Position numbers and translations under genes: made by a program. A stretch of 64,000 bases of DNA. Origin: an uncultured Bacilli bacterium (GTDB lineage Bacteria; Bacillota_I; Bacilli_A; RF39; UBA660). Positions 3,321-27,115 of this stretch are shown here, one piece after another (within the stretch, counting starts at the first letter, position 1; each line of letters starts with the position of its first letter). The DNA is taken from the NCBI GenBank assembly GCA_934101115.1, contig CAKOPW010000009.1, forward strand, positions 677 to 64,676. Direction: 5' to 3'. The notes under the pieces are model-generated. The model was given only the letters and a program-made list of their open reading frames with translations. It was not told the origin of the DNA and did no database searches.

Positions 3321-3749
3321 ATGGACGGAATTGAAAAAAGAGAAATAATACTTGATAATTACTCTCATCCATTTCATAAAACAAGCGAGAATGTAGATGG
3401 ATATATAAAAGTAAATTCAAATAACGAATCGTGTATAGATAACATTGATATCTATGTGTTAATAAAAAATGGTATACTTGAAGACATTAAATTTGATGGA
3501 GAAGCGTGTGCCATATCAACATCTTCAACATCAATTATGATAAGAAATCTGATTGGAAAAACAGAAGAAGAAGCTCTTGAATATATAAATAACTTTGAAG
3601 CAATGCTTAATGAAGAAGAATATGATGGTTCTTCTTTAAATGAAGCGATTGTCTTTGACGAAACTTATAAACAAGGTAATAGAAAAACATGTGTGACTTT
3701 GCCTTATGTAGGATTAAAGAAAATTTTGGAACAACATAAAGAGGATTAA
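3321..3749 (+). CDS. sufU: SufU/IscU-like Fe-S/sulfur-transfer protein
   Basis: 142 aa with three conserved Cys contexts (NESCID, GEACAISTSS, RKTCVTLP). Directly follows sufS. Confidence 0.85.
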   Translation: MDGIEKREIILDNYSHPFHKTSENVDGYIKVNSNNESCIDNIDIYVLIKNGILEDIKFDGEACAISTSSTSIMIRNLIGKTEEEALEYINNFEAMLNEEEYDGSSLNEAIVFDETYKQGNRKTCVTLPYVGLKKILEQHKED

Positions 3750-3750
3750 G

Positions 3751-4603: not shown

Positions 4604-5185
4604 ATGACGTTAGTTGAAATTGAAGCGAAATTAAAAATAAATTTTGAAGAAAGTTATGAAGCGTTTTTGGAAGCTTTGAAGCTAATTAAAACAGATGAAC
4701 TTAGAGAAGAAATGAAAAGCAAATTTTTGAAGACAATAGAGCCATATGTAAATTCATTTTATCATAAAGATCATATTGTCTATGAAATAAAAAAACTGAA
4801 ATATTTTGGATTTATTCATAACGCAGATATTGAGTTTTATCTTCAATATGTATTGGAAAATTATGACGAAGAAACGTTTAATAGATTTTATTCTACCGTT
4901 TATGAAATTGGCCTTTCATCAACAAGTACAGCATCAAGAATATGTCATAATTCTTCTTGGTATACTGGAAAAAAGGATAAAGAAAGAATTATTGAAGAAA
5001 CTTTTAGAAGTGGACATTTGTTAGCAAATACTTTTGAAGAAGAAATAAGAAAGTGTATTGAGAATGTAATAGAAATTGAAATAGATTATATCAATGAATG
5101 TCAAAAAAAATCATTAAAAGGTGAAACTTATTGTGACAATTGTTCACCGCTTTGTCTAGAGAAAAGGATAGCTAGGGAGGAATAG
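4604..5185 (+). CDS. hypothetical protein
   Basis: Clean 193-aa ORF with an RBS (gtgaggaa), abutting gmk. C-terminal CxxC (CDNCSPLC). No family recognised. Confidence 0.5.
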   Translation: MTLVEIEAKLKINFEESYEAFLEALKLIKTDELREEMKSKFLKTIEPYVNSFYHKDHIVYEIKKLKYFGFIHNADIEFYLQYVLENYDEETFNRFYSTVYEIGLSSTSTASRICHNSSWYTGKKDKERIIEETFRSGHLLANTFEEEIRKCIENVIEIEIDYINECQKKSLKGETYCDNCSPLCLEKRIAREE

Positions 5186-5187
5186 TT

Positions 5188-5868
5188 ATGGACGTTATTA
5201 AAGAGAAAAGCAGAGGATCATTAATTGTTATAAGTGGTCCAAGTGGTGCTGGTAAGGGTACTGTTATTAAAGAATTTTTAAATATTCATGAAAATGCATG
5301 GTTAAGTATTTCTTGTACTTCAAGATCTCCTAGACCTGGAGATAAGGAAGGCGAAACGTATTATTTTTTATCAAAAGAAGAATTTGAGGAAATGATTAGA
5401 AATAACGAATTTTTAGAATATGCTGAGTATAATGGTGCTTATTATGGTACTCCTAAAAAGTATATAGATGATAGATTAAATAGTGGAATTGATGTTATCT
5501 TAGAAATTGAAGTTCAAGGAGCTTTAAAGGTTCGTGAACTTTTACCTGAAGCAATATGTATATTTATTCTTCCACCTTCAATGAGTGAACTTAGACGTAG
5601 ACTTACATGTCGTGGAACAGAAACTAAAGATAAAGTACTTTCGAGATTTAAAAGAGCATATCAAGAAATTAATGAAGTTAAAGATTATAACTACGTTGTA
5701 GTTAATGATACAGTAGAAAATGCTGTACAAAAGATAACAAGCATATTGATTGCATCTAAATGTTCTGTTGATAGAATTGAAAATATTTATTTAGACAATC
5801 AAGAAGAAGAAATCCATGAAATATTGATGGATAAAACGTTTGAAAATCGTGACATTCATATTGACTAG
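5188..5868 (+). CDS. gmk: guanylate kinase
   Basis: P-loop GPSGAGKGT, TSR.PR.GE..G..Y.F and EIEVQGA motifs. Has a C-terminal extension of about 20 aa relative to typical Gmk. Confidence 0.9.
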   Translation: MDVIKEKSRGSLIVISGPSGAGKGTVIKEFLNIHENAWLSISCTSRSPRPGDKEGETYYFLSKEEFEEMIRNNEFLEYAEYNGAYYGTPKKYIDDRLNSGIDVILEIEVQGALKVRELLPEAICIFILPPSMSELRRRLTCRGTETKDKVLSRFKRAYQEINEVKDYNYVVVNDTVENAVQKITSILIASKCSVDRIENIYLDNQEEEIHEILMDKTFENRDIHID

Positions 5869-5899
5869 ATAAAGAAAATAAGATAAAATTTTGTTTGTA

Positions 5900-6096
5900 A
5901 AGCGAAGATATGAGATTAGTAATAAATGATTTGTTTTGAAGAGAGTTTGTGGCTGGTGTAAACAAACAATAAATATTTATGAATCTCCTCATTAGTGTTG
6001 TTAATAGCAACCGGGGTTAAACCGTTATCTAAATTAAGTTAAAAGTAGGATGGTACCGCACATAAGTGCTCCTTTGGGTGGTATCATTTTTTTTAT
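5900..6096 (+). promoter_or_regulatory. T-box leader (tRNA-sensing riboswitch), Ser specifier
   Basis: Stem I elements: AGUA (5918-5921), AG bulge gaagagag (5938-5945), and distal hairpin gtttgt/acaaac with a GGTGTAA loop (5955-5961). GAA-UCU lies at 5981-5986 in the specifier position. T-box sequence aggatggtaccgca (6047-6060) is followed by a terminator-like stem and T-run (6087-6094), just before the RBS at 6101. Confidence 0.75.
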
Positions 6097-6111
6097 TAGA
6101 AAGGAGTGTTT

Positions 6112-6867
6112 ATGAGAAAAGTAATAACTGATGACTGTCATAAAAAGCAAAGTTTATCTAATAGAATAAAACAGTTGAATAGGTTAAAACAGCTGGGATT
6201 TAAATTAGTCTATAGTGAAAATCTAGAATCTTATAAAGATAAGTATATTTGTATACATTCTTTACCGGATAATTTATTTGATTTAGTTGACTTATTTGAC
6301 ACAAGCAGAATAACTGATGATAATAATTTGCTTATCAGTTTTTCTAGAGAAGATTTAGAAAAAATAAGAGAAATGGATGACCAATATCTTAAGGCTGCTG
6401 TAATAGTTCGAAGAGTGTTTGCAAATGTTTTGGATAAAGCAGGTAATCCGTATATAAATCATTTATATACTGTTTCTATAAGTGAAGATTATATTTCTTC
6501 AGTTGCTGGATTATTGCATGATATTATAAAGGATACAAATGTAACTGCTTTAGATTTATTAGAGGTTGGAATTGATAGAGACATAGTTGAAACTGTGTTT
6601 ATTGTTACAAATCCTTTAAAAGATGAAATACTTTTAAGTGATGAGGATCGACTTAATGCTTACAATGAAGAAATAGATTCAATTATAAATAGTGGAAATC
6701 CACATGCGTTAAGATTAAAGATGCGTGATATGAAAAATAATTATGATCCAAAAAGATTAGAGCTTTTATCGATAGAACAACAGGAATGGCTTGGAAAAAA
6801 ATATGGTAATAATTTAAAAAAATTAGAAAAAGCATTAGAAAGTAGGAATAAAGATGATAGATATTAA
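6112..6867 (+). CDS. HD-domain protein, RelA/SpoT-type (small alarmone hydrolase-like)
   Basis: DKAGNPYINHLYTVS ... VAGLLHDIIKDT resembles the SpoT/Mesh1 HD hydrolase core (K.G.PY..H...V, LLHD..EDT). ATG 6112 lies behind RBS aaggag. The 3' end overlaps serS by 14 nt. Confidence 0.6.
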   Translation: MRKVITDDCHKKQSLSNRIKQLNRLKQLGFKLVYSENLESYKDKYICIHSLPDNLFDLVDLFDTSRITDDNNLLISFSREDLEKIREMDDQYLKAAVIVRRVFANVLDKAGNPYINHLYTVSISEDYISSVAGLLHDIIKDTNVTALDLLEVGIDRDIVETVFIVTNPLKDEILLSDEDRLNAYNEEIDSIINSGNPHALRLKMRDMKNNYDPKRLELLSIEQQEWLGKKYGNNLKKLEKALESRNKDDRY

Positions 6868-13729: not shown

Positions 13730-13924
13730 ATGGATGTATATAGAAAAAGAGAAAAAATTAAATATAATAATCAATTATTTCAAATTATTGAAAGAAATGA
13801 TAAAAAATTAGGTTTCTTAAAAATAAAATATGATGGAGATAATGTCGTTTATGAATATCCAACAGCTTATGAATTTTTGCATTTAAGCAGTTTCATGAAT
13901 AAAAAAAACAGAATAAAATTCTAG
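13730..13924 (+). CDS. hypothetical small protein (64 aa)
   Basis: ATG 13730 lies behind RBS agagggga. The stop overlaps the stop of the convergent endonuclease gene (ctag). No family recognised. Confidence 0.3.
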   Translation: MDVYRKREKIKYNNQLFQIIERNDKKLGFLKIKYDGDNVVYEYPTAYEFLHLSSFMNKKNRIKF

Positions 13925-14667
13925 TTATTTTTGGAGTTAATAAGTTTAAAGATGGAACTAATGCCATCCTTTTTTATCGCAAAAATTAGTCCTTTATTTC
14001 TGTTTTTTCCAAGTAAATTACTTGAGCGATCAAATCTTAGGGAAATTGTTATCTTTAAATCATCATTTTTGATTGCTTTTATAAAGTTTTCAAAATCTTT
14101 TAAAATATAACAATCAATTTGATAATATCTATAATATAAATTATTATCTTCTTTTTTCTTACTAGCTTTTATTAGCACCATTTTTTTGATTTTAATATCT
14201 GCTCTGGTTTTAATAGTATAAAAGTCAATGTATCCAATTTTATCTATTAAAATTTTATCTTGATTATAAACATAAGTGACTATTCCGTCATCAAGTACTT
14301 TTAATTCAAAGTAGTAATCACCGTATTCTATTAATTCATTGTATTTTAAAGCGAGATTAAATACTTTTCTATCTTTATAAACTCTATCGTAAATTCCATA
14401 GTTGTTTAAAATGTAATCGCTTTCATACTCATGATATCCAATAAATGTAGATGAGAACAAAGAAACTGGAAAGTTACTAAACCTTGTACTTGTTTTTATT
14501 TCTATTTCTTTATAATCTGGAAATATAGAAGTGTTAGGATTTATATTAAGAAGATGCTCGAATGTAAGTCCACAGGAATTATATGGATTATTATTGATCG
14601 CTTTAATATATCCTTTAGAACTAATATCTTTGAATAATTTAATTATATCCTCAAAATCTCTTTTCAT
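13921..14667 (-). CDS. MvaI/BcnI-family (MutH-like) type II restriction endonuclease homolog
   Basis: Co-linear with my recollection of BcnI/MvaI. N-terminal ..KGYIKA.., then GLTFEHLL, a D-x(n)-E-x-K catalytic block (FPDYKEIEIKT), KIKKMVLIKA, and a C-terminal basic segment (GKNRNKGLIFAI). 248 aa. Confidence 0.65.
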   Translation of the reverse strand: MKRDFEDIIKLFKDISSKGYIKAINNNPYNSCGLTFEHLLNINPNTSIFPDYKEIEIKTSTRFSNFPVSLFSSTFIGYHEYESDYILNNYGIYDRVYKDRKVFNLALKYNELIEYGDYYFELKVLDDGIVTYVYNQDKILIDKIGYIDFYTIKTRADIKIKKMVLIKASKKKEDNNLYYRYYQIDCYILKDFENFIKAIKNDDLKITISLRFDRSSNLLGKNRNKGLIFAIKKDGISSIFKLINSKNN

Positions 14668-14828: not shown

Positions 14829-14905
14829 GGATCTTTAGCTCAGTTGGTTAGAGCATCCGGCTCATAACCGGGCGGTCGTAGGTTCGAGTCCTACAAGATC
14901 CACCA
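14829..14905 (+). tRNA. tRNA with CAT anticodon (Met, or Ile2 if lysidine-modified)
   Basis: Acceptor ggatctt/aagatcc, D-arm tagctcagttggttagagca, anticodon loop ctCATaa, T-arm gtaggttcgagtcctac, encoded CCA. The body resembles Ile-type tRNAs. Confidence 0.9.
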
Positions 14906-14913
14906 TTTATTGT

Positions 14914-14998
14914 GCAGGTATGGCGGAATTGGCAGACGCGCTAGACTTAGGATCTAGTGGAGTGATTCGTGCAGGTTCAAGTCCTGTTACCTGCACCA
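14914..14998 (+). tRNA. tRNA-Leu (TAG)
   Basis: Acceptor gcaggta/tacctgc, anticodon loop ctTAGga, long variable arm, T-arm gcaggttcaagtcctgt, encoded CCA. Confidence 0.9.
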
Positions 14999-15155: not shown

Positions 15156-15184
15156 TTGATTTTATTTGTGAAAAATTGTAAAAT
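15156..15184 (+). promoter_or_regulatory. putative sigma-A promoter (extended -10)
   Basis: TTGATT (15156-15161), 17 nt spacer ending in TG, TAAAAT (15179-15184). Confidence 0.4.
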
Positions 15185-15209
15185 AAATTTTATGAAAGAA
15201 GACGTCAAA

Positions 15210-15767
15210 ATGGTAATTAAGACTATACAAGATAATATATTTAACACTGATGCAAAACACATTGCTTTTGCTATAAACACTGAGGGGTACAATGATTTTG
15301 GTTTTGCTGGTAAGGTATCCGATAATTATTGGCCTGAGATAGCAAATTGTGGAAAACATGAATTGGGTACTGTTATATCAAAAACGGTTGGAGATAAAAC
15401 TTTTCATGCATTAGTTTGTCATTCTTTAAAATATGGCTGGGGAGACAATCAAGATGAGATTATTAAAATGTGTTTTGACACAATAGATTCTAATGGTGAG
15501 CCAATTGCAACAGTTGCTATAGGAACAGGTTTAATTGGTGTTACAAGTGGTGCCAATGTTCCCGAAATTTTTTGCGGCATGCATGAATCCAAACAACAAA
15601 TCATGTTGTATTCTAGATTTTCATTAGATTTCGTTATAGATTGTTATAATAGCGAAAAAGAAACAAGAATAGTAAGAGAAGATTTAGTTGAGGAAACAGC
15701 TGCTGAAACCTTGAGCACTTTACCGGAAAAGACTATGAAAAAAGTTTTAGAAAATAAAGGCAAATAA
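15210..15767 (+). CDS. macro-domain-like protein (putative ADP-ribose binding/hydrolase)
   Basis: IQDNIFNTDAKHIAFAINTEGYNDFGFAGKV ... ATVAIGTGLIGVTSGANV follows the macro pattern (GDIF...D.IVH..N..G.MG.G.A ... P.IG.GL.GG). The start is ambiguous (ATG 15192 or 15210). Confidence 0.45.
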   Translation: MVIKTIQDNIFNTDAKHIAFAINTEGYNDFGFAGKVSDNYWPEIANCGKHELGTVISKTVGDKTFHALVCHSLKYGWGDNQDEIIKMCFDTIDSNGEPIATVAIGTGLIGVTSGANVPEIFCGMHESKQQIMLYSRFSLDFVIDCYNSEKETRIVREDLVEETAAETLSTLPEKTMKKVLENKGK

Positions 15768-15842
15768 CCATTTTCACTCCACAAAGTTGACAAAACTAGA
15801 AAAAAATATATAATATTCTAATGAGAAGAGGGGAGTACTTTT

Positions 15843-17318
15843 ATGAAAAATATTTTAACTATAGGAAAAAAAGGAAAAACAAGTGGAGATTTTTGTGCTA
15901 ATATTACTCCAGACTATTGCAATCTGGTTGCTTTTATAGATTTAGAAAATGATGACTTGCTTGAAAAATTATCACATCATGATTTAATAATAAATGATGT
16001 AATGGAAAATTCATTTCTTGAACCACAAGAAGCAAAAGATTATTTATCTACACTATTTGGATATGAAAATATTATTGATGCGTTTGATTATGTGGATTTA
16101 GATGTTGGTTTAAATGATTTAACAATTCCAAAAAGTTTATTAGCTAAAAACCCTTGGATTAAATCAAAAAAGATAATTTTAACTAGCGATGAAGTTTCTG
16201 TGAATGAGGCAATTGAACTTGCTAATCAATATGCTGAGTATAAAAATCAACTTGTTTTTAAGTTAAAGGGAAACAAGGAATATGTTTCGTATGAAGATGT
16301 TTTAAAGATGAATGAAATTTTAGAACATTATGTGCAAGCAATAAAATCCTGTAGTTTAACTAGTCAACTTGAGCTAATCATGTTATCTTACGATATTGAC
16401 AGAAAAATTGTATATGGAAGTTTTGATGAAACACAAAGTGAAGAAATAGATACTTTTGATAAAATTTATAATACAAATTCTGTTCAATTAAATTTTGCTT
16501 TGTTGTTTTCCGAAATTTTAAACTATTTAGGTATCAATTCAAAAATTGTAAAGCAATCTTCTGAAATAAATCGAAATAAAAAACTTTCTAGAGTATCAAT
16601 ATATATAAAAGATGACAAATATAATGTCGATGGTATATATTTCTTTGATCCGTTTCTTGATTGTATGAAAGGCTTGGAAGAAAAGAAATATCCTACATTA
16701 TATAATTACTTTTTAAAAACTGCAGACGAGGTAGAAAAGCGTGATAAAGAAAGATTTCCGTGGGAAAAATTTGAGTCTAGGGAACGAATTGAAAATGATG
16801 AGATTAAAGGATTATCTATGCCAGAAATTCAAACTTTAGGTGCTTCAAAATGGAAATATATTGAAAATTTATACGAAATTGTTACTGGAGATCATTTTGA
16901 TTTTGTCCAAACTGTTCTTATCAGTTCTGAAGAGGAAAAGAAAGCATTTATTAGTAAAGTAAATGAATTTGAAACCATGATGAATAAGCCTATTGATACG
17001 AAAACTAGGTTAAGTCTTTTTGATAATGTTAGAAGAGCTGAATACTATTACAATATAAATTCTTTAGATTACAATGTTGAAGATATGTTAGAGGCAATGG
17101 AATCTAGCGGTTGGAACATTGATGAGTCTGAAATATCTCCAAAAGACTTAAATAAAAGAGATAAAGAACTTTTAGGATTATTTGGTGGAGTAAGTTATAA
17201 AGTGATTGGACTTCGTAAATATATTAAAGAACAAAACGTTGAAAGAAAAATTAGTGGCGTAAGATTAACTAAAGTATTAAAAGAGTATTCAAAAAATAAA
17301 GAAAATGACTGTATGTAA
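15843..17318 (+). CDS. hypothetical protein (491 aa) with a possible degenerate transglutaminase-like core
   Basis: Own promoter (TTGACA-16-TATAAT at about 15788-15815) and RBS gaggggag. The segment NFALLFSEILNYLGINSKIV ... SRVSIYI ... IYFFDPF resembles a TGase-like fold, but the Cys and His positions are not conserved. Confidence 0.5.
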   Translation: MKNILTIGKKGKTSGDFCANITPDYCNLVAFIDLENDDLLEKLSHHDLIINDVMENSFLEPQEAKDYLSTLFGYENIIDAFDYVDLDVGLNDLTIPKSLLAKNPWIKSKKIILTSDEVSVNEAIELANQYAEYKNQLVFKLKGNKEYVSYEDVLKMNEILEHYVQAIKSCSLTSQLELIMLSYDIDRKIVYGSFDETQSEEIDTFDKIYNTNSVQLNFALLFSEILNYLGINSKIVKQSSEINRNKKLSRVSIYIKDDKYNVDGIYFFDPFLDCMKGLEEKKYPTLYNYFLKTADEVEKRDKERFPWEKFESRERIENDEIKGLSMPEIQTLGASKWKYIENLYEIVTGDHFDFVQTVLISSEEEKKAFISKVNEFETMMNKPIDTKTRLSLFDNVRRAEYYYNINSLDYNVEDMLEAMESSGWNIDESEISPKDLNKRDKELLGLFGGVSYKVIGLRKYIKEQNVERKISGVRLTKVLKEYSKNKENDCM

Positions 17319-17333
17319 AGTACAGTTTTTTTT
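17307..17333 (+). terminator. rho-independent terminator
   Basis: Stem gactgta (17307-17313) pairs with tacagt (17321-17326), followed by T8. The hairpin includes the stop codon. Confidence 0.6.
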
Positions 17334-17423
17334 ATAATTTTTTCATATAATATATTAAGTTGCATCTTGTATTTTTCTAAAGTTATTGATATATTTTTAT
17401 TGTAAGATAGTGGAGGTGGTAGT

Positions 17424-18173
17424 ATGGTCCATTTAACTTACGTAGAAAATCCATTTGACAAAGATTTTTTTACTTCTTTATCAAAATATGCAGACGAAAA
17501 AAGCTTTTATGATTGTGTTAATAAACGATTTGTTGATGAAGAAGCTTTTAAAAACTTGGAGTATGGATTCCGTATGTATATGCTTACTGGTGACAGTAAT
17601 GAATGGATAGGTTTTGTTTTGTTTTCAAATGAAAATAGAGTTAAAGGTTTAAGATATTATGCTTATAGTTACTTTTTAGAATGCCTAGATCGATTAGAAG
17701 AATTAATTCCAAGTGATATAACACAAGAGATAGTTAAATTGGTAACAGATCAAAAGAATCAAAATGTATTATTTAATACAATCGATGAAAGTTTTGAGAA
17801 TTTGTCTTCAATTATCAACCCATCAATTATTGATTTAGAGAAGAAATCATATAGGAAAAAACTTGATGATGTATTAAATGAGTTTGCTGACTATATGTAT
17901 TTGGATACTTTTATATCCCTTCCAAATGATGAAAAAATTAAGATACGACTAGAAAATGAGACAAGCAATTTAGATGAAAATCAATTAGTTGAGAAAAAAT
18001 ATTATGGTTTTATTCAAGAAACTCTTGGCTTGGTTGAAAACTTGATACAAAACTCTTTTAATGGAATACATATTATTTTAAAACAAGAAGGTACAAATAT
18101 ATTTTTAGTAGAGACAAGTAGTTTTGTCGAAGATAAAGAACTTACAAAAGTTTTAATAAATCAAGAAGAATAA
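17424..18173 (+). CDS. hypothetical protein (249 aa)
   Basis: ATG lies behind RBS gtggaggtgg and is bracketed by terminators. No family recognised. Confidence 0.5.
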   Translation: MVHLTYVENPFDKDFFTSLSKYADEKSFYDCVNKRFVDEEAFKNLEYGFRMYMLTGDSNEWIGFVLFSNENRVKGLRYYAYSYFLECLDRLEELIPSDITQEIVKLVTDQKNQNVLFNTIDESFENLSSIINPSIIDLEKKSYRKKLDDVLNEFADYMYLDTFISLPNDEKIKIRLENETSNLDENQLVEKKYYGFIQETLGLVENLIQNSFNGIHIILKQEGTNIFLVETSSFVEDKELTKVLINQEE

Positions 18174-18198
18174 TAGAACTGGTTCTATTATTTTTTTT
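18172..18198 (+). terminator. rho-independent terminator
   Basis: Stem aatagaac (18172-18179) pairs with gttctatt (18182-18189), followed by a T-run. Confidence 0.65.
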
Positions 18199-18219
18199 GC
18201 AGAAATATGCGAACAATTG

Positions 18220-18248
18220 TTTACAAACAAGAACAAATGTTTTATAAT
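18220..18248 (+). promoter_or_regulatory. sigma-A promoter of the radical-SAM/DUF4130/Cpn60-like operon
   Basis: TTTACA (18220-18225), 17 nt spacer, TATAAT (18243-18248). Confidence 0.5.
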
Positions 18249-18266
18249 TTAATTGGTGATGAATTT

Positions 18267-19478
18267 ATGGATTTAAAAGAAAAACTACATATTCTTGCCG
18301 ATAGTGCTAAATATGATGCATCATGTTCATCAAGTGGAAGTACTAGAGACGATGGTGGAGTTGGAAATACTAATAGAAGTGGAATATGTCATTCTTTTGC
18401 TTCTGATGGAAGATGTATTTCTCTTTTAAAAATACTTATGACTAACGCTTGTATTTTTGATTGCAAATATTGTCCCAATAGAAAGAGTAATGATGTTAAA
18501 AGGGCGATTTTTACTCCGACAGAAATATGTGAAATTACAATGAATTTCTATAAAAGAAATTATATTGAGGGATTGTTTTTGAGCTCAGGTATCGTTAAAA
18601 ATCCTGATTATACGACAAATCTATTAATTGAAACAATATACATGCTTAGAAATAAGTATAAGTTTAATGGATATATTCATGTAAAAGCCATCCCCGGTAC
18701 AAGTGAAACATTAATAAAAAAGCTTGGGTCCATGGTTGACAGGATGAGTGCTAATATAGAGTTACCAACAGAAAACGGGCTTAAATTATTAGCTCCTAAC
18801 AAAAGTGAGGATAAAGTTACTAAAATAATGAAATATGTCAAAGAAAATCGAAGTAAACACTATGTTCCTGCTGGTCAAAGCACTCAAATGGTCATAGGAG
18901 CAACAAACGAAACAGACTTTGATATTATGACTAAAAGCAAAAAACTATATGATGAACACAAATTAAAAAGAGTATTTTACTCGGCATATATTCCTGTTAA
19001 TAAAGACAATATGCTGCCATCTATAAGTATCCCACCTTTAAAAAGAGAAAATAGACTTTATCAAGCTGACTTTCTTTTGAGATTTTATAATTTTAAAGTT
19101 GATGATATATTAGACAAAGAAAATCCTAATTTCAATTTATTATTGGATCCAAAAGCTGCTTGGGCTTTAAAAAATATTCACTTATTCCCAAAAGAAATAA
19201 ATACTTGTTCTTATAATGAATTACTCCAAATACCAGGAGTGGGTGTAAAGGGAGCAAAGAAAATATATAGTTCAAGGAAGTACTTTAAAATAAAATTTGA
19301 AGATTTGAAGAATATGAATATTGTTATGAAAAGAGCAAAATATTTTATTACTTGTGATGGTAAATATTTTACGGATGCAGCTAATTTTAAAAGAAACATA
19401 ATAGAACAGTCGTTATTGCTTGAAGACTTAAAAGAAAATAGAAGAAAAGTTAGTCAGTTAAGTTTGTTTGATGAATAA
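18267..19478 (+). CDS. putative DNA modification/repair radical SAM protein (TIGR03916-like)
   Basis: N-terminal ILADSAKYDASCSSSG, a CxxxCxxC cluster motif (CIFDCKYC), and a C-terminal helix-hairpin-helix-like LLQIPGVGVKGAKKI. ATG 18267 lies behind ggtgat. Confidence 0.8.
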   Translation: MDLKEKLHILADSAKYDASCSSSGSTRDDGGVGNTNRSGICHSFASDGRCISLLKILMTNACIFDCKYCPNRKSNDVKRAIFTPTEICEITMNFYKRNYIEGLFLSSGIVKNPDYTTNLLIETIYMLRNKYKFNGYIHVKAIPGTSETLIKKLGSMVDRMSANIELPTENGLKLLAPNKSEDKVTKIMKYVKENRSKHYVPAGQSTQMVIGATNETDFDIMTKSKKLYDEHKLKRVFYSAYIPVNKDNMLPSISIPPLKRENRLYQADFLLRFYNFKVDDILDKENPNFNLLLDPKAAWALKNIHLFPKEINTCSYNELLQIPGVGVKGAKKIYSSRKYFKIKFEDLKNMNIVMKRAKYFITCDGKYFTDAANFKRNIIEQSLLLEDLKENRRKVSQLSLFDE

Positions 19479-20223
19479 TAATAAAGTTTATGTTTATAAT
19501 GATAACTTTTTAAGTCTTTTAGCTTTAATCGTAATTTTGATAAGAAAGAAAATTGTACCAAAAGATATAAAACCATATAATTTCGAATTTGGTTTGTTTG
19601 ATGAAGTGGAAGAACCTTTATTGCCTGAAAAAGAAGAAACTATTAATTATATTATAAAAAATATTGGTTACAATAATTTTAGTATAATATTTAGGCTTTA
19701 TTTATCGGTGTTTGAAGATAAAGAATTGACTATTTTTTATTATTGTTTGTATTCTTTAAAATACAAAGAAACAACTAGGTTTATGCGTAACAATAAATGG
19801 GTAAACGAAGCTTTAAAACAAAGTTCATATGTTTCAAGAGAAAATCATAAGTTTAAAGGATTCACTAGATTCAAAAAAATGAATAATGAAATTTATTATG
19901 CTGAAATCAATCCAACTAATAATATTCTTCCGTTACTCTCTAATCATTTCAAAGATCGCTTAAAAAGTGAATATTGGATTATTAAGGATGTTAATAGAAA
20001 TTTATATAGCTTATATGATAAAAAAAATTTTATTATTGTCTCTGAAGATGAATTCAAGATAAATGATTTTAATTTGAGTGATGATGAGGATAAATTCTTA
20101 AGTTTATGGAAAGAATTTTATGATACTGTTGGAATAAAAGCAAGAAAAAACGATAGATGTAGAATGAATTTTATGCCTAAAAAGTATTGGAAATATATCG
20201 TGGAAGTGAGTGATGAGCTATGA
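19471..20223 (+). CDS. DUF4130/TIGR03915-like putative DNA metabolism protein (usual partner of the radical SAM protein)
   Basis: About 250 aa, overlapping the radical SAM gene by 8 nt. The pattern ...RENHKFKGFTRFKK...YYAEI.P.NNILPLL..HF..R......WII.D fits my recollection of that family. Confidence 0.6.
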   Translation: MNNNKVYVYNDNFLSLLALIVILIRKKIVPKDIKPYNFEFGLFDEVEEPLLPEKEETINYIIKNIGYNNFSIIFRLYLSVFEDKELTIFYYCLYSLKYKETTRFMRNNKWVNEALKQSSYVSRENHKFKGFTRFKKMNNEIYYAEINPTNNILPLLSNHFKDRLKSEYWIIKDVNRNLYSLYDKKNFIIVSEDEFKINDFNLSDDEDKFLSLWKEFYDTVGIKARKNDRCRMNFMPKKYWKYIVEVSDEL

Positions 20224-21743
20224 AAAAAGTAGTTATAGGAGAAGAACTTGATAAAATAATTGAAGAAGCATTGGACATATTATGTGATACTGTTGGAGCT
20301 ACGCTTGGACCAAAGGGAAATAATTCAATTATTTCTAGTTCATCTTTACCGGCTTTTGTAACTGATGATGGTGTAACTTTAGCTAGAAATATTGAAAGTG
20401 ATGATGTGTGTGTTAATTCAGTTCTAGAGATATTAAAAGAAGCTTCTATTAAAACTGATGAAATAGTTGGTGATGGAACAACTACAACTCTTGTTTTATT
20501 AAAAGCTATAATGAGTAATGCTAGCAACTTAATATGTGGTGGAATGAGCAGATATCAAGTAAAAAAAGCATTAGAAAATGAGGAAAAAAGAATAGAAGAT
20601 TTGATAATAAAAGAATCTTTTAAACCTGATGATAAAGCATTAAAAAATATAGCTATTACTAGCTCAAAATCCGAAGAAATAGGAGAAACTATTTATCAAG
20701 TTGTAAAAAAAATAAAAAACATTGCTGGAGTTACAATAACAACTAGTAATAAAGAAGAAACTTATGTTAATTATTTTAAAGGGTATGAATTTGACACTAA
20801 TTTAGCAAGTCCTTTTTTCTTTAAAGGAAATTCAATAATAAAATTAGAAAATCCTTATATTCTAGTTACTTTTGAAAGTATATATGATATTGAAAAATTA
20901 AGCGATTTAATCAATAAGTGTTTTGTCGATAAAAGAAATTTATTGATATTTGCAACTGATTTTGATGATGATGTAATAAATCAGATATTATCGTTCAACT
21001 ATGACAATGATTTAAAAATATATTTGCTAAAAAATCCTGAATTTGGTAAGAGACAATATCTTTTAATGAGTGATTTACTGGAAATATGTGGATGTAAAGA
21101 ATATAAGAATCAGTTTAATTATGATAATGTTGGGGAAGTCAAAGAGGTTGTCATCAATAAAGATAAAACTTATGTTTATTTTGACAATAGTTTAACTAAT
21201 TATATTGAAGAGAGTAAAAGAGATTTGAAATTTATCAATGATGAATTTGATATCAATTACTATGAAAGACGTATTTCAATGTTGTCCGATGGACTTGCAA
21301 CTATTGAGGTAGGGGGAAAAACTATAAGCGAAGCAAGAGAAGCTAAAATGCATTATGATGATGCTATTCATGCGACTTATTCAGCTTTAGAAGGAGTAAA
21401 TATAGGAGCAGGATATACCTATTTAAAAATAGCATCAACATTAGAAGATAATTGCATTTTAAAAAATGTTTTATATACACCTTTTAGACAAATTTTAAAA
21501 AATGCTGGATTAGATGCAAGTGTGATAGAGAAAAATATTACATCTGATTTTAAAAAGATATATAATGTCAAAGTTGATGACTATGAAAGTATTGATTCTA
21601 CTTCAGTTTTGGATTCAACAAAAGTGCTAATTCAATCACTAAAGACAGCTGTATCTATTGCTAATATTTTACTTAGTACAGGTAGTTTAATAATTAATGA
21701 ACAAATAAAAAATATTGATATAGATCATGATATCAATATTTAG
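20220..21743 (+). CDS. divergent Cpn60/GroEL-family chaperonin paralog (no GroES partner, no GGM tail)
   Basis: GroEL motifs occur in order: TLGPKGNN, TDDGVTLA, VGDGTTTT, DDAIHATYSALEG, VLDSTKV. The protein is full length (507 aa) but its apical region is strongly diverged. ATGA overlap with the upstream gene. Confidence 0.75.
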   Translation: MKKVVIGEELDKIIEEALDILCDTVGATLGPKGNNSIISSSSLPAFVTDDGVTLARNIESDDVCVNSVLEILKEASIKTDEIVGDGTTTTLVLLKAIMSNASNLICGGMSRYQVKKALENEEKRIEDLIIKESFKPDDKALKNIAITSSKSEEIGETIYQVVKKIKNIAGVTITTSNKEETYVNYFKGYEFDTNLASPFFFKGNSIIKLENPYILVTFESIYDIEKLSDLINKCFVDKRNLLIFATDFDDDVINQILSFNYDNDLKIYLLKNPEFGKRQYLLMSDLLEICGCKEYKNQFNYDNVGEVKEVVINKDKTYVYFDNSLTNYIEESKRDLKFINDEFDINYYERRISMLSDGLATIEVGGKTISEAREAKMHYDDAIHATYSALEGVNIGAGYTYLKIASTLEDNCILKNVLYTPFRQILKNAGLDASVIEKNITSDFKKIYNVKVDDYESIDSTSVLDSTKVLIQSLKTAVSIANILLSTGSLIINEQIKNIDIDHDINI

Positions 21744-21744
21744 T

Positions 21745-22920
21745 TTATTTTCTTTTAAAGAAAAGCATTTTAAATATTTTAAAAATAAATAGAACGATTA
21801 ATAAATTTATAAATACTAATAGATAAAAATTTATTTTTACATCTTTAAATATTATGTCTTCTTCATAGATAAGATCATCTTTATATGTTATAGTGACTTT
21901 TCCAATTTGTTTATTATTGTCTAAAAATGTTACAGATGTTTTTCCGTTATAGTTAACTTTTATATCATCTTTATTATAGTCATTTGGCAAATAAATTAAT
22001 GCATCTTTACTTAAATGAATATTGTATTTAGTGATATTAGAAAAACTTACAGGAATTGTTTTGATTATGTCAGTTGATTTTGCAATCGTTTGATTATTAT
22101 AATTATTATCCATAAAATTTATTATATTTAAATTATCTTTTAAATTATAGTAATTTCCATAAATAAATTCGGCATTTGTTGAAATAAAAATAAATTCGTG
22201 ATTGTTACTTTCAAATATTGAAGATATACATAATCCAGCTTTGTTAGTGTAACCCGTTTTACTACCAACAATTCTGGAAATATCTAGTTTCATTAAGTTA
22301 TTATATTTTTTTATTGTAGCGTCTACTATTAAACCATTTGATAAAGTATAGCTTTTTGTTGTATATATTGTTTTAAATGTTTCATTTTTTAAAGCATATT
22401 GTAACATTTTTAATAAGTCACTTATTGTGCTATAGTGGTTATCAATATCAAGACCAGTAACATTTACAAAGTTAGAATTTTCCATCCCAATTTGTTTTGC
22501 TAAAGTATTCATATCATCTACGAAATTATTGATGCTTCCACTTAACGAATATGCAAGTGCTTGAGTGGCATCAGCTCCAGATGGAAGAATAGATGCATAT
22601 AATAAATCTTTGTAGGTCAATTTGTCTCCAATTCTTAGTCCGGCAAGAGAAGCATCATATTTTATATTTGAAAGCATTTCACTTGTAATAATTACATAAT
22701 CATCAAGATTATTTATTTTTTCGATAGCTGTTATAGTTGTCATAATCTTTGTAAGACTTGCTATATTTGTTCTTTCCTGTATATTTTTTTCATAGATTAT
22801 TTTATTATCAGTTAAATCATATAAACAATAATTTTTAGAATATAATGTAGGATCATCTAAAGCAAATACATTTATAGTAAAAGTAAAAAAACATAGGATA
22901 ATTAATACTAGTTTTTTCAT
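21745..22920 (-). CDS. D-alanyl-D-alanine carboxypeptidase (peptidase S11) with C-terminal membrane anchor
   Basis: Signal peptide, SLTKIMT (SxxK), PSGADA (SxN-like), SKTGYT (KTG), and a C-terminal hydrophobic helix. Confidence 0.8.
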   Translation of the reverse strand: MKKLVLIILCFFTFTINVFALDDPTLYSKNYCLYDLTDNKIIYEKNIQERTNIASLTKIMTTITAIEKINNLDDYVIITSEMLSNIKYDASLAGLRIGDKLTYKDLLYASILPSGADATQALAYSLSGSINNFVDDMNTLAKQIGMENSNFVNVTGLDIDNHYSTISDLLKMLQYALKNETFKTIYTTKSYTLSNGLIVDATIKKYNNLMKLDISRIVGSKTGYTNKAGLCISSIFESNNHEFIFISTNAEFIYGNYYNLKDNLNIINFMDNNYNNQTIAKSTDIIKTIPVSFSNITKYNIHLSKDALIYLPNDYNKDDIKVNYNGKTSVTFLDNNKQIGKVTITYKDDLIYEEDIIFKDVKINFYLLVFINLLIVLFIFKIFKMLFFKRK

Positions 22921-23048
22921 AAAACCACTTCCAGTATGAAAATTATATCAAATATGTCTGTGTAAGTGTATAAATTCCTTTCTTTTAAACCAAATAATAA
23001 TAAAATGTATAAAATTTCGATAAATTTGCGAAAATGCAGGTAAAAAAT

Positions 23049-23076
23049 TTGCATTTTTTTTATTTTGTGATATAAT
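23049..23076 (+). promoter_or_regulatory. sigma-A promoter of the adhesin/sortase operon
   Basis: TTGCAT (23049-23054), 16 nt spacer, TATAAT (23071-23076). Confidence 0.5.
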
Positions 23077-23104
23077 AGGCAGCAATTCAAGGGGGAAAAG
23101 GGTT

Positions 23105-24658
23105 ATGAAGAGAAACAAATTAATGACATTTATGTTTATGCTTGTTGTATTATTATTTGGGGGAATTGCTTCTGTTTCAGCAGCAACTACACTTCCAGAT
23201 AACGTTACTTCTGATAATTTAAGAGAGGTTGAATATATAAAAAACTTCCCAGTAATTATCAAAAAAACAAACCATGGATATGTTTATTGCTTAAACATGT
23301 CTCATACTTATGCAGCTGGAATAACATTCAATAAAACTGGTGAAGTTGCTGTAGGATATAATTATATTTTAAATAATTTACCAAATACTGGAGATGCAGA
23401 TAAAGATTTCTATATTGCTCAAATGGCAGTTTGGTATTATGAAGATTATTTAAATAACAATAATTTTAATTTAGTACCAGAGGTAAAAAAATATATTGTT
23501 CGTCATAAAGATACTGAAGAAGTAAGCAAAGCAATTTATAATTTGTATGAAGGTGCAAAAAATTATAAAGAACCAGTTGCGAAATTAGAAATTAGTCCAA
23601 GAGATATTACATTTACAAAAGATGGTGAATATTTTGTTTCAAATGAAATTAAAATAAACACAGCTAATTTAAATGGAAACCTAAGTTATTCATTAACAGG
23701 TTCTCCAGCAGGATCAAAAATCGTTAAAAGCGGTGAAGGAATAAAGGTAAAAATTCCTGTAGATAAGGTTGGAAATAATAAACAAATAACGGTTACATTA
23801 AATGTTAGTTCAACATATAAATCTCAAAGAGGTTATTATTATTTCTATAATGATAATTATCAAAAGGTTTTATACAATGAATTACTTGATAAAAATGTAA
23901 ATATACAAGATTCAATTAAAATGGTAGTAAGAAATAAAACTGAATTTGAAGTTGATATCAGTAAAAGTGATATTACTCAATCTAAAGAAATTCCTGGAGC
24001 TACATTAGTAGTAAAAGACAAAACTGGAAAAACATTATATAATTGGATTTCTACTACTGAAAGTAAGAAAATTATCTTAACTGAAGGTGAATATAGTTTG
24101 AGTGAAACTATTGCACCAGAAGGTTATAAATTAAGTACAACTACAATCGAATTTAAAGTAGATGCTAACGGAAGCGTTTATGTAAAAAATGAAAAAGGTA
24201 ATTATGTTGCTGTAGATAAAGTAGTTATGATCAATGTATTAAAAGATGTAGTAACTATTGCTAAAAAGGATTCTAAAACAGATGCTTTAGTAGCAGGAGC
24301 AACATTAGTAATTAAAGATAAAGATGGAAACGTTGTAAAAGAATTTACAACAACTAATGAATATTATCAATTAACTATGGATGCTGGAACTTATACAATT
24401 GAAGAAAAAAGTGCACCAGCTGGTTATATTAAGAGTAATGAAATAATAACATTTGAATTACTTGATAATGGAACATTAAAAATTAAGGATAAAAATGGGG
24501 ATTTTATCGAAAGCAATTTAGTAACATTCTATAACACTAAAGGGGAAGAAGTACCTGTTCCAGCAACAGCATCTTCTAGTACACTTTTAATTATTGGTGG
24601 TTTAGTCTTGATTATAGGTGGAGCTTACTGTGTTAGAAAAACTATCAAAGAATGCTAA
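23105..24658 (+). CDS. surface adhesin with an N-terminal thioester (TQXA-type) domain and Cna-B/SpaA-type repeats
   Basis: Signal peptide. Cys context GYVYCLN plus Gln context YIAQMAVWYY (thioester pair). Two repeats of ..GA.LV.KDK.G......T.....Y.L....G.Y...E..AP.GY. C-terminal hydrophobic helix plus basic tail (RKTIKEC), but no LPXTG. Confidence 0.75.
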   Translation: MKRNKLMTFMFMLVVLLFGGIASVSAATTLPDNVTSDNLREVEYIKNFPVIIKKTNHGYVYCLNMSHTYAAGITFNKTGEVAVGYNYILNNLPNTGDADKDFYIAQMAVWYYEDYLNNNNFNLVPEVKKYIVRHKDTEEVSKAIYNLYEGAKNYKEPVAKLEISPRDITFTKDGEYFVSNEIKINTANLNGNLSYSLTGSPAGSKIVKSGEGIKVKIPVDKVGNNKQITVTLNVSSTYKSQRGYYYFYNDNYQKVLYNELLDKNVNIQDSIKMVVRNKTEFEVDISKSDITQSKEIPGATLVVKDKTGKTLYNWISTTESKKIILTEGEYSLSETIAPEGYKLSTTTIEFKVDANGSVYVKNEKGNYVAVDKVVMINVLKDVVTIAKKDSKTDALVAGATLVIKDKDGNVVKEFTTTNEYYQLTMDAGTYTIEEKSAPAGYIKSNEIITFELLDNGTLKIKDKNGDFIESNLVTFYNTKGEEVPVPATASSSTLLIIGGLVLIIGGAYCVRKTIKEC

Positions 24659-25244
24659 GGTAACCCTAGGCATTCTTTTGCTTTTCTTAGGTATTGGCTG
24701 TTTATCATTTACTTATTTCAAAACAATCAAATCTAATATATTTAATGAGAAAAATCTTAAATATTTTGAAGAAATTGATATAGCCGAACCTGTTGAAGAA
24801 GTAGTTGATGAAACTGTGCCTGAAGAAACTACAACACCAGTAATAAATTATAATTATATAGGTTACTTAGAAATCCCTAAAATCAATTTAAAAAGAGGAT
24901 TTGTATCCTTGAACTCAAAATACAATAGTATTAGTTATAATGTTATGCTTATTAAGGGAAGCAGTATGCCAGATGTAAAAAATGGTAATCTTATACTTGC
25001 TGCTCATAGAGGTAACTCTTCAGTTTCATTTTTTGATAAGTTATATAAATTAAATATTGGTGATGAAGCCAATGTTACATATAATGATAAAGTATACACT
25101 TATAAATTAGTTAATACTTATTTAGAGGAAAAAGATGGAACAATCGCGATATATCGTGATGAAAATAAAAATACACTTACTCTTATCACTTGTACAAGAG
25201 GAGATAAAAAAACTCAAACAGTATTTATATTTGAGTTAGTATAA
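24630..25244 (+). CDS. sortase-family transpeptidase
   Basis: N-terminal TM, LILAAHRG (catalytic His) and TLTLITCT (TLxTC catalytic Cys). GTG 24630 lies behind aggtgga and overlaps the adhesin 3' end. Confidence 0.8.
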   Translation: MLEKLSKNAKVTLGILLLFLGIGCLSFTYFKTIKSNIFNEKNLKYFEEIDIAEPVEEVVDETVPEETTTPVINYNYIGYLEIPKINLKRGFVSLNSKYNSISYNVMLIKGSSMPDVKNGNLILAAHRGNSSVSFFDKLYKLNIGDEANVTYNDKVYTYKLVNTYLEEKDGTIAIYRDENKNTLTLITCTRGDKKTQTVFIFELV

Positions 25245-25256
25245 GGAGGTTAAATT

Positions 25257-25934
25257 ATGCCAGAATTATCAATTTTAGAAATTTTAAAATATGCGTTAAA
25301 ATCATTAATGGATTCTAAAGTATTTATACTTATTTTGTTAGAAATAGCTATATTTGCAGTATCAGTGATCTTTTCAAAACTAATGAATAAAAAAACTGTT
25401 AAATATACAGCAGTTGGAGCAAGTTTAGTTATACTTATGTTTTATATTGTTAACTATATAAGTACAGTAAAAGTATTTTTAAATAATGTAACTACAAAGT
25501 TAGTTGAATTAATATATTTTCCAACAACTTTAGAATTTGTTTTAGTAATGATTTTCTCATTTACAATAATGATTGTAACTTTAAAAAGCAAAAATACTAA
25601 TAAAATATTAAAGTTTATTAATTCGGTTTTACCACTTACAATCTCTTTCATATTTTTATCAATTATTGAATATATCAATACTAATAATATAGCTTTTGAT
25701 GAATTTAGTGTATTTTCTAATCCAATAATGATGAGTTTATATGAATTATCAATGGGATTATTTGTATTATGGATAATTGGTTTGATAATCTATAAAATAG
25801 ACGTATTCATTATCAATAAAATAGTCATAGTTGATGAATCTGAACTTCCTGATCGAAATGTAGAAATTTATTTACCAAAGAAAAAAGAAGTAGAAGAAGA
25901 AATTGAACTTCCAAGATTAAAAAGTCAAATTTAA
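25257..25934 (+). CDS. polytopic membrane protein, unknown function
   Basis: Strong RBS aaggagg, at least 5 hydrophobic helices, acidic C-terminus. Third gene of the adhesin/sortase unit. Confidence 0.5.
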   Translation: MPELSILEILKYALKSLMDSKVFILILLEIAIFAVSVIFSKLMNKKTVKYTAVGASLVILMFYIVNYISTVKVFLNNVTTKLVELIYFPTTLEFVLVMIFSFTIMIVTLKSKNTNKILKFINSVLPLTISFIFLSIIEYINTNNIAFDEFSVFSNPIMMSLYELSMGLFVLWIIGLIIYKIDVFIINKIVIVDESELPDRNVEIYLPKKKEVEEEIELPRLKSQI

Positions 25935-25990
25935 TTAAGAAGATTAGTTCTTCTTTTTTTTTACGTTCATAGTATTAAGTAGGTGAAGAA

Positions 25991-27115
25991 ATGAAAAAGA
26001 TAATTCTATTAATTATGTTATTAATTCCGTTTAAAGTTTTAGCAGTTGAAACCAGTGCTAAATCAAGTATTTTAATTGAACAATCAACTGGAACTATTTT
26101 AAGTGAAGAAGAAAGTCATACAAGATTACCTATGGCAAGTATGACCAAAATGATGACACTTTTAATTGTTATGGAAAATATTGAAAAGGGAAATATTAAA
26201 CTTGATGACATGGTTCCAATAAGTGAAAGTGCAGCTTCTATGGGAGGAAGTCAAATATACTTAAGTGCAAATACTACGATGAAACTAGATACTCTAATAA
26301 AAGCTATTTGTATTGCTTCAGCTAATGATGCAACTTATGCTGTTGCTGAATATATTGCAGGAACTCATGATGGTTTTGTAAAACTAATGAATGAAAAAGT
26401 TAAAGAATTAGGACTTAAAGATACTAATTTTGAAAATGTGCATGGATTAGATTCTGATAATCATTATTCCTCAGCATATGATATGGCTTTTATTGCTCGT
26501 GAACTTCTTAATCATCCCAAAATATTAGAATATTCAAGCATATATGAAGATTATATAGCTCATCCAAATGGAACAAATACATGGATTGTTAATACTAACA
26601 AACTTCTTAATTATTATGATGGATTGGATGGATTAAAAACAGGATATACAACTAAAAGTGGATATTGTATTACAGCAACAGCTAAAAGAAATAATATGAG
26701 ACTTATAAGTGTAGTAATGGGTGAAGAAAACAATAAAATTAGAAATCAAGATACTATTTCTCTTTTAAATTATGGTTTTTCTAACTTTAAACTTGAAACA
26801 GTATTAAAACGTGATGAAAATTTAGGAAAAATCAAAATTAAATCAGGTAAAGCCGAATATGCTAATTTAAAGTTAAAAACAGATGCTGTTGATCTAGTTA
26901 ATATTCTTGAAAAAAATAAATATAATTATAAAATAACAAAAAATAAGGTAAGTGCACCATTAAAAGTTGGAGATACTGTAGGAACACTTACAATCTATGC
27001 GAATGATATCAAAATTAAAGATATTGAATTAACTGTTGATAAAGATATAAAACGAGCTAATTATTTTGATTACTTTAAAAGAAATCTTAAATATTTTATT
27101 AGAGGTTGCTATTAA
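25991..27115 (+). CDS. D-alanyl-D-alanine carboxypeptidase (peptidase S11, DacB/DacF-like)
   Basis: Signal peptide, SMTKMMT (SxxK), SANDA (SxN), LKTGYT (KTG), and a C-terminal PBP5_C-like domain. Confidence 0.85.
   Translation: MKKIILLIMLLIPFKVLAVETSAKSSILIEQSTGTILSEEESHTRLPMASMTKMMTLLIVMENIEKGNIKLDDMVPISESAASMGGSQIYLSANTTMKLDTLIKAICIASANDATYAVAEYIAGTHDGFVKLMNEKVKELGLKDTNFENVHGLDSDNHYSSAYDMAFIARELLNHPKILEYSSIYEDYIAHPNGTNTWIVNTNKLLNYYDGLDGLKTGYTTKSGYCITATAKRNNMRLISVVMGEENNKIRNQDTISLLNYGFSNFKLETVLKRDENLGKIKIKSGKAEYANLKLKTDAVDLVNILEKNKYNYKITKNKVSAPLKVGDTVGTLTIYANDIKIKDIELTVDKDIKRANYFDYFKRNLKYFIRGCY

Follow-up and report, generated by a model that had tools for sequence, protein, structure and literature searches.

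Group I chaperonins are normally general folding machines that are regulated by heat shock and depend on the co-chaperonin GroES. Diverged Cpn60s without an adjacent groES, such as chlamydial GroEL2 and GroEL3 and the extra GroELs of mycobacteria and rhizobia, are thought to be narrower in role, and phage EL encodes a group I-like chaperonin (gp146) that works without a co-chaperonin. We know of no orphan GroEL paralog inside a radical S-adenosylmethionine (radical-SAM) or DNA repair operon. The second relevant system is the SOS cassette of a radical-SAM/helix-hairpin-helix (HhH) protein (TIGR03916; COG4277) and a DUF4130 protein with or without a uracil-DNA glycosylase domain (TIGR03915/TIGR03914; COG1573); the equivalence of the COG1573-COG4277 and TIGR03915/TIGR03916 pairs is presumed from the COG definitions. 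The chemistry of the pair is still undefined, a question open for more than 10 years. The COG1573-COG4277 two-gene operon is reported to be SOS regulated in Verrucomicrobia and Alphaproteobacteria and is predicted to be so in Bacteroidetes (PMC8565304), and an earlier comparative study connected SOS systems with DUF4130 and with SplB-like radical-SAM enzymes (PMC3765255). Furthermore, a 2026 preprint predicts a tight radical-SAM/DUF4130 heterodimer in which DUF4130 binds nucleic acid and a narrow channel suits a single-stranded substrate. Here, a 64-kb stretch of DNA from an uncultured Bacilli bacterium (the window; operon coordinates are window positions) is analyzed, in which these separately known systems, an SOS-linked radical-SAM/DUF4130 cassette and a group I chaperonin, are joined in one operon, an arrangement found in at least 178 species-level lineages.

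The operon consists of three same-strand open reading frames (ORFs; genes 1, 2, and 3) without intergenic space, as described in an earlier note made from the sequence of the window. Genes 1 and 2 overlap by 8 nt (ATGAATAA) and genes 2 and 3 by 4 nt (ATGA), and the three genes probably form one transcript. The stop codon of gene 3 lies 1 nt from that of a convergent D-Ala-D-Ala carboxypeptidase gene. The start of gene 1 at 18267 is favored over an ATG at 18207 because TIGR03916 aligns from residue 3 and the promoter lies downstream of 18207. Gene 2 ends with TGA, and translation therefore follows table 11 rather than table 4.

Genes 1 and 2 both pass the curated NCBIfam cutoffs, confirming the proposal that they are the radical-SAM protein annotated for putative DNA modification or repair and its DUF4130 partner. 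Residues 3 to 401 of gene 1 cover TIGR03916 model positions 1 to 415, PF04055 is matched at 39.9 bits (versus 29.5), and the CIFDCKYC motif is located where it had been read. The C-terminal HhH-like segment proposed for gene 1 contains a GVGxKxAxKI motif, at the position corresponding to the HHH_3 domain of the family in the 2026 preprint, and its Pfam scores are below gathering thresholds (PF12836, 21.7 versus 27 bits; PF00633, 18.6 versus 24 bits). Gene 2 matches TIGR03915 at 190.7 bits (cutoff, 112.25) and PF13566 at 148.3 bits (versus 27; E = 2e-43). The families, the order of the two genes, and a LexA-box-like operator in the promoter are all shared with the SOS cassette. Unlike the SOS cassette, the operon has a third, translationally coupled Cpn60 gene, its DUF4130 protein lacks the uracil-DNA glycosylase domain, and its operator half-sites are relaxed to RAAC-N4-GTTT. 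Spore photoproduct lyase (SplB) is likewise a radical-SAM enzyme that acts on DNA and has SOS-regulated relatives, but it belongs to a different family, as gene 1 matches TIGR03916 and no SplB model is among its matches.

Gene 3 is a full-length member of the GroEL family, as had been claimed. PF00118 is matched over residues 23 to 492 (129.4 versus 34.3 bits), and the motifs TLGPKG, VGDGTTT, DDAIHAT, GAGY, and VLDSTKV occur in GroEL order. The protein scores below all curated GroEL cutoffs (TIGR02348, 258.4 versus 582.1; NF009487, 281.5 versus 352; NF000592, 279 versus 397). It reaches 45 bits on thermosome/group II models, in the N-terminal region only (cutoffs, 450 to 671), and 51.4 and 72.5 bits on the chlamydial GroEL2/GroEL3 models (versus 600). 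The best PDB matches are group I GroEL/Hsp60 structures (E of ~1e-57 to 1e-60), compared with ~1e-10 for group II. An AlphaFold 2 model built with 64 family sequences has a mean predicted local distance difference test score of 89.8 and aligns with GroES- or Hsp10-bound GroEL/Hsp60 subunits at a template modeling score of 0.85. The structural matches and predicted fold therefore identify gene 3 as a group I chaperonin that is derived yet complete in its three domains.

Within this fold, conservation is uneven. Family members are 25 to 33% identical to Bacillus subtilis GroEL. Residues are numbered here according to Escherichia coli GroEL, for which the reference sequence was checked at its length and landmark residues. 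D52, D87, G88, T89, T90, D398, D495, G32, P33, and G53 are invariant in 121 family sequences, N479 is kept in 120 of them, and T91 is kept in 118, with S in the other 3. These sequences also retain the hinge glycines G192 and G410, and in the GGG loop the middle glycine is variable (S, G, A, or T). Divergence is greatest in the apical domain, with 23% identity to E. coli GroEL and 38% identity among family members, compared with 31 to 34% and 57% for the equatorial domain. Apical hydrophobic residues at 199, 203, 204, 237, 259, and 263 stay hydrophobic, but L234 is replaced by S or A, V264 by S, R197 by T or S, and E386 by K, I, T, or V, with loss of the R197-E386 intersubunit salt bridge. The residues that make inter-ring contacts (R452, E461, S463, and V464) are not conserved. 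The diverged apical region, the GAGY loop, and the absence of a Gly-Gly-Met tail were all correctly noted earlier. A family-specific C terminus stands in place of that tail: of 168 family members, 157 end in L, I, M, or F, 155 have E, N, or D at position -2, and 99 have Y or F at position -4; the protein of the window itself ends with DHDINI. The stem-loop region (window residues 35 to 55) is nearly invariant, which is compatible with ring formation. This pattern suggests that gene 3 encodes an ATPase under strong purifying selection in which co-chaperonin, ring-ring, and cavity features have been rebuilt.

Gene 3 thus shares its three-domain fold, ATP site residues, hinge glycines, and best sequence matches with the GroEL/GroES system (TIGR02348). 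It differs in the absence of an adjacent groES, Gly-Gly-Met tail, L234, V264, R197-E386 bridge, and conserved inter-ring contacts and in having a LexA-like operator instead of the controlling inverted repeat of chaperone expression (CIRCE). The orphan GroEL paralogs of chlamydiae, mycobacteria, and rhizobia resemble gene 3 as diverged Cpn60s without adjacent groES. PDB 6tmt, named "putative GroEL-like chaperonine" and an example of the GroES-independent phage chaperonins, is a weak, partial match to gene 3 (E = 8e-25, N-terminal 200 residues), and phage GroELs are 29 to 31% identical to it.

Neither the window nor any triad locus contains a GroES-like ORF, in line with the initial observation that no 10-kDa co-chaperonin ORF lies on either side of gene 3. 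Searches by tblastn with approximate GroEL and GroES sequences found nothing in the window and related loci (~1.5 Mb), but with ~20 kb per genome this absence is statistically weak, as about one chance match would be expected even if groESL were present. Gene 3 is a putative paralog. The strict operon linkage, the operator, fast evolution, and failed GroEL membership tests nevertheless indicate that this is not an ordinary groEL locus, even if gene 3 is the sole chaperonin, and uphold the claim that it is not a housekeeping groESL locus.

The linkage of the three genes is conserved. A search of 5.8 billion proteins returned >900 relatives of gene 3, those listed being mostly 500 to 520 amino acids long. 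One genome per GTDB species was scanned with a pattern specific to the family, drawn from the apical and C-terminal regions; relatives of gene 3 were found in at least 178 species, and the loci of the best 80 were read. These 80 carriers are all AT-rich, uncultured gut metagenome-assembled genomes (MAGs) sampled from humans, rabbits, goats, mice, and rumen and labeled Bacilli, Tenericutes, Mycoplasma sp., Erysipelotrichaceae, or Firmicutes. Genes 1, 2, and 3 are adjacent and collinear in every one of the 80 loci; 74 loci are complete, and the others, which are cut by a contig end, still have genes 2 and 3. Relative to the window, identities are 65 to 85% for gene 1, 43 to 68% for gene 2, and 37 to 61% for gene 3. 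The immediate neighbors belong to 48 families upstream (74 loci) and 49 downstream (73 loci); the triad has been kept intact while its surroundings were rearranged. In 68 of 79 loci, the spacing between genes 1 and 2 is -8, -4, or -1 nt. Genes 2 and 3 have a spacing of -4 nt in 45 of 65 loci and overlap further in the remainder. An intergenic gap occurs in only two loci, in both cases between genes 1 and 2 (2 and 9 nt). Metagenome contigs carrying relatives at 62%, 44%, and 43% identity have the same gene order in different surroundings.

More distant relatives are also found in triads, including four deeper, more GroEL-like subfamilies (P0278, P0267, P0285, and P0302) and P0172 with its relatives (34% identity to the window protein and 37% to B. 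subtilis GroEL). When 1.84 billion representatives were searched exhaustively with HMMER, ~55 family clusters at 50% identity were obtained, followed by a continuum of other GroEL-like proteins, and the gene 3 family is monophyletic in a neighbor-joining tree, adjoined by AT-rich sister branches. A JGI metagenome scan found the triad in ~12 AT-rich contigs; the AT-rich matches (21 to 30% GC) that reach upstream carry gene 2, together with gene 1 where the contig is long enough, and none has GroES. The GC-richer canonical GroELs in the same scan (45 to 68% identity to B. subtilis GroEL) have GroES upstream in seven loci, and none is accompanied by gene 1 or gene 2. The canonical GroEL P0433 is in an ordinary groES-groEL operon. 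P0212 (L098, 5718 to 7551) and P0412 (L100, 1475 to 3409) are tail-less, fast-evolving GroELs of 516 to 521 amino acids from another AT-rich lineage, where they are encoded in ordinary groES-groEL operons. By neighbor joining, the outgroup closest to the triad Cpn60 is P0212; it is ~44% identical to B. subtilis GroEL, keeps R197 and L234, has I at 264, and shares too few genes with the triad clade to be tied to it. In Pusillibacter faecalis, [Eubacterium] eligens, and Parabacteroides distasonis, the radical-SAM/DUF4130 pair is a two-gene unit without a chaperonin. The earlier note's overall interpretation, a chaperonin-like ATPase recruited into a DNA-targeting radical-SAM module, is therefore supported by the profile matches, by an adjacency that persists among varying flanks, and by the separation of canonical GroELs from the pair and of the pair from chaperonins outside the clade. 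A defense system or mobile element was considered and rejected, as genes 1 to 3 have no PADLOC match, no gene 3 family member was found in IMG/VR, the identity to phage GroELs is low, and the neighbors are mostly housekeeping genes.

The operon has its own transcription signals. The TTTACA-17-TATAAT promoter reported for it is the best match in ~6 kb (17300 to 23200; 11 of 12 positions); promoter-like sites are overall at chance level in this 27% GC DNA, and a TATAAT-like -10 element at the same distance from the ATG is found in nearly all related loci. The upstream hairpin reported as a terminator folds at -8.9 kcal/mol (z = -3.98) before a U-run, but it was not called by a G+C-dependent scan that needs three G-C pairs. 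An AT-rich intrinsic terminator is plausible, and hairpin and T-run elements of a similar kind precede the promoter in many related loci.

Two LexA-like operator boxes, which the earlier note had missed, are associated with this promoter. A box of the form NC[AG]AA[CT]AWWTGTTT[GA][CA] lies at about -56 from the start of gene 1 in 67 of 74 distinct upstream regions and is also carried by the deep subfamilies, and box 2 has counterparts in a subset of related loci (e.g., L004, L007, L014, and L033). Beyond these boxes, a position weight matrix of the operator yielded just three strong matches in 1.34 Mb of sequence. Among them, a site in L075 (6498, minus strand) is upstream of an MgsA/RarA ORF (5078 to 6406), which is consistent with a DNA damage regulon. 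The LexA (Cheo) box of Firmicutes is taken here to be CGAAC-N4-GTTCG, a consensus from which the triad operator differs by one base per half-site. Outside the clade, the promoter of the Pusillibacter pair has two perfect GAAC-N4-GTTC boxes, and that of the E. eligens pair has CGAACAAATGTTTT between TTGACT and TATAAT. LexA is thus the probable binding protein, to judge from the boxes, which strengthen the link of the operon to DNA damage. Heat shock regulation of the triad was rejected, as no CIRCE element was found upstream of any triad. Together with the LexA-like operator, this indicates that the chaperonin gene is wired as a DNA damage gene and not as a heat shock gene.

Other upstream elements were seen in some loci. 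A CIRCE-like inverted repeat (TTAGCAGTT-N9-ACAGTGCTAA, three mismatches) at 3447 to 3473 in L055, ~70 nt upstream of an Hsp20/alpha-crystallin-like ORF (3540 to 3968; 142 amino acids), suggests that the clade has HrcA-type heat shock control and does not apply it to the Cpn60 gene. A second element, approximately GCCAAAAATTGGC (CCAWAAATT, either orientation), is shared by 19 of the 75 upstream regions, versus a background of 0.02 per 150 nt. It is located ~70 to 90 nt upstream of gene 1 in L010, L012, L024, L033, L037, L040, L049, L072, L078, L079, and others and is not in the window; L057, L061, and L067 have this element and lack the LexA-like box. In P. faecalis (L087), a hypothetical ORF of 42 amino acids (3376 to 3504), with no counterpart in the window, lies between the LexA-boxed promoter and the radical-SAM gene.

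The locus may be viewed as one self-contained operon, with a terminator, a promoter with two LexA-type operators, and three translationally coupled genes, that would serve a large, AT-rich clade of uncultured gut Bacilli in its DNA damage (SOS-type) response. The widespread radical-SAM/HhH enzyme and its nucleic acid-binding DUF4130 partner, SOS regulated in other phyla, are encoded by genes 1 and 2, to which this clade appears to have added a GroEL-derived ATPase. Gene 3 has kept the ATP-binding and hydrolysis machinery and the three-domain fold and has lost the features of GroES cycling and the double ring. Made in step with the enzyme, it could act as a dedicated chaperone without GroES, folding, assembling, or keeping active an oxygen- and aggregation-sensitive partial-TIM-barrel radical-SAM/DUF4130 complex after derepression by DNA damage. 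GroEL clients are enriched in TIM-barrel folds, the class most dependent on GroEL, and radical-SAM cores are partial TIM barrels; in addition, E. coli GroEL is needed for UmuDC function. A dedicated, GroES-independent chaperone for folding, assembly, or maintenance of the radical-SAM enzyme is considered the most likely role of gene 3, with moderate confidence, because the pair does without a chaperonin in most bacteria, the three proteins are coproduced in this clade, the ATPase is kept, and GroES-related features are lost. Gene 3 probably forms a ring that works without GroES, and the radical-SAM pair is its probable client.

Several points weigh against this role. The dedicated function is deduced from operon structure, and contact of gene 3 with genes 1 and 2 is hypothetical. 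Gene 3 evolves approximately twice as fast as gene 1 (compare their identities to the window above), which would be unexpected for a protein serving one fixed, highly conserved client surface. The operator box is absent from 7 of the 74 upstream regions under the pattern used. Neither lexA nor recA was found in the sequence of the window or related loci, and the naming of LexA therefore depends on likeness to the Cheo box and on promoters outside the clade. Lastly, if the same genomes lack canonical groESL, gene 3 could be a general chaperonin.

The last point leads to a second explanation, in which gene 3 is the sole, general chaperonin of reduced genomes, a fast-evolving GroES-independent GroEL fixed by chance downstream of the pair. 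Many Mollicutes have lost groESL, and the carriers are AT-rich relatives of Mollicutes-like lineages in which, as far as the window and ~1.5 Mb of related loci extend, no canonical groES or groEL was seen; moreover, the nearest outgroup is a tail-less, GroES-coupled GroEL of an AT-rich lineage, indicating that such lineages let GroEL drift. The absence from 20-kb samples has the statistical weakness described above, however, and a housekeeping gene is unlikely to be third in an operon, without its own promoter and CIRCE and behind two repressor-type operators. The linkage has outlived rearrangement of the neighborhood, which implies selection on coexpression, and a protein with 25 to 33% identity to canonical GroEL and as little as 37% within the clade, where gene 1 has 65 to 85%, is unlike any essential GroEL. 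A role as sole chaperonin is considered unlikely.

Gene 3 could also be a working subunit of the repair machine, its Cpn60 ring using ATP on the substrate rather than as a folding helper, although we regard this only as a tentative alternative. Such a ring might unfold or extract a protein that is cross-linked to or stalled on DNA, or hold single-stranded DNA, and so expose the lesion; yeast mitochondrial Hsp60 is reported to bind single-stranded DNA. It would fit the strict ~1:1:1 coupling with translational overlaps in every lineage, the DNA damage-type operator, and the invariance of the ATP site while the apical domain and tail were remodeled to family-specific forms, including a conserved [YF]x[EDN][LIMF]-COOH end that resembles a docking peptide. 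An SOS-induced, GroES-independent ring that docks through its apical domain or C-terminal peptide onto radical-SAM/DUF4130 as an obligate ATP-driven component of repair is nevertheless doubtful, as in most bacteria this pair functions with no chaperonin, so that its chemistry does not need one, and no DNA-binding feature was detected in gene 3 (PF00118 is its only Pfam match). The absence of any functional link, with adjacency due to common descent within a narrow clade, is already disfavored and highly improbable: all carriers are uncultured gut Bacilli, so that shared ancestry contributes, but the flanks are shuffled (48 to 49 neighbor families in ~74 loci) while the triad is never broken and its overlaps are maintained, the linkage extends to subfamilies ~34% identical to the window protein, and gene 3 is an intact ORF with invariant catalytic residues.

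Literature searches turned up no description of a chaperonin in a radical-SAM/DUF4130 cassette, in keeping with the initial impression that the combination is undescribed, and chaperones are not mentioned in PMC7301438. With regard to the placement of the clade, PMC6785717 gives RUG12915 as Erysipelotrichaceae on a long branch. As a dedicated chaperone, gene 3 would be a naturally occurring case of a chaperonin under DNA damage control that probably serves a single client system. The radical-SAM pair may need the chaperonin for solubility or activity, which could explain why its activity has not yet been reconstituted. If a role in the repair machine itself were true, it would represent a new functional class of chaperonin and a handle on TIGR03916/DUF4130 chemistry. 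Relatives of gene 3 annotated as "hypothetical protein" by PGAP or "chaperonin GroEL" in IMG require correction. The features of the operon are listed in Table 1.

Table 1. Positions of the genes, protein motifs, and regulatory elements of the operon in the window
Feature	Position	Strand	Remark
AT-rich hairpin and U-run	18166..18198	+	Probable intrinsic terminator of the upstream gene (17424-18173); isolates the operon
Operator box 1, CGAACAATTGTTTA	18210..18223	.	LexA/Cheo-box-like palindrome overlapping the -35 hexamer
Sigma-70-type promoter, TTTACA-17-TATAAT	18220..18248	+	Best match in the region scanned
Operator box 2, AGAACAAATGTTTT	18230..18243	.	Palindrome between the -35 and -10 hexamers
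Gene 1, TIGR03916 radical-SAM protein	18267..19478	+	597.4 bits (cutoff, 343.5)
CxxxCxxC radical-SAM [4Fe-4S] cluster motif, CIFDCKYC	18450..18473	+	Gene 1 residues 62-69
HhH-like segment, LLQIPGVGVKGAKKI	19221..19265	+	Gene 1 residues 319-333
Gene 2, TIGR03915/DUF4130 protein	19471..20223	+	250 amino acids; stand-alone, without uracil-DNA glycosylase domain
Gene 3, diverged group I Cpn60	20220..21743	+	507 amino acids; ATP site intact, apical domain altered, no Gly-Gly-Met tail
Family-specific C-terminal tail, (L/I)(V/I)INE...[YF]x[EDN][LIMF]-COOH	21687..21740	+	Replaces the Gly-Gly-Met repeats of GroEL

The genes surrounding the operon in the window are of other kinds. Three ORFs on its 5' side (15156 to 18173; 203, 491, and 249 amino acids) have no Pfam or PADLOC match; the positional counterpart of the 491-amino-acid ORF in L004 has a weak transglutaminase-core match. 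Further upstream, a gene for an MvaI/BcnI-family restriction endonuclease (PF15515; E = 2.5e-26) is located at 13921 to 14667 on the minus strand, beside tRNA-Met and tRNA-Leu genes (14829 to 14998). Downstream, a cell wall and pilus cluster (21745 to 27115) comprises two D-Ala-D-Ala carboxypeptidases (PF00768), a SpaA/thioester-domain pilin, and a sortase. This cluster indicates that the organism has peptidoglycan, although some related MAGs are labeled Tenericutes or Mycoplasma. Among the loci retrieved, L137 (1051 to 2625) encodes another Cpn60, unrelated to the triad and strongly diverged (31% identity to B. subtilis GroEL; 30% GC), which has ankyrin-repeat genes on both sides and may originate from a symbiont or giant virus.

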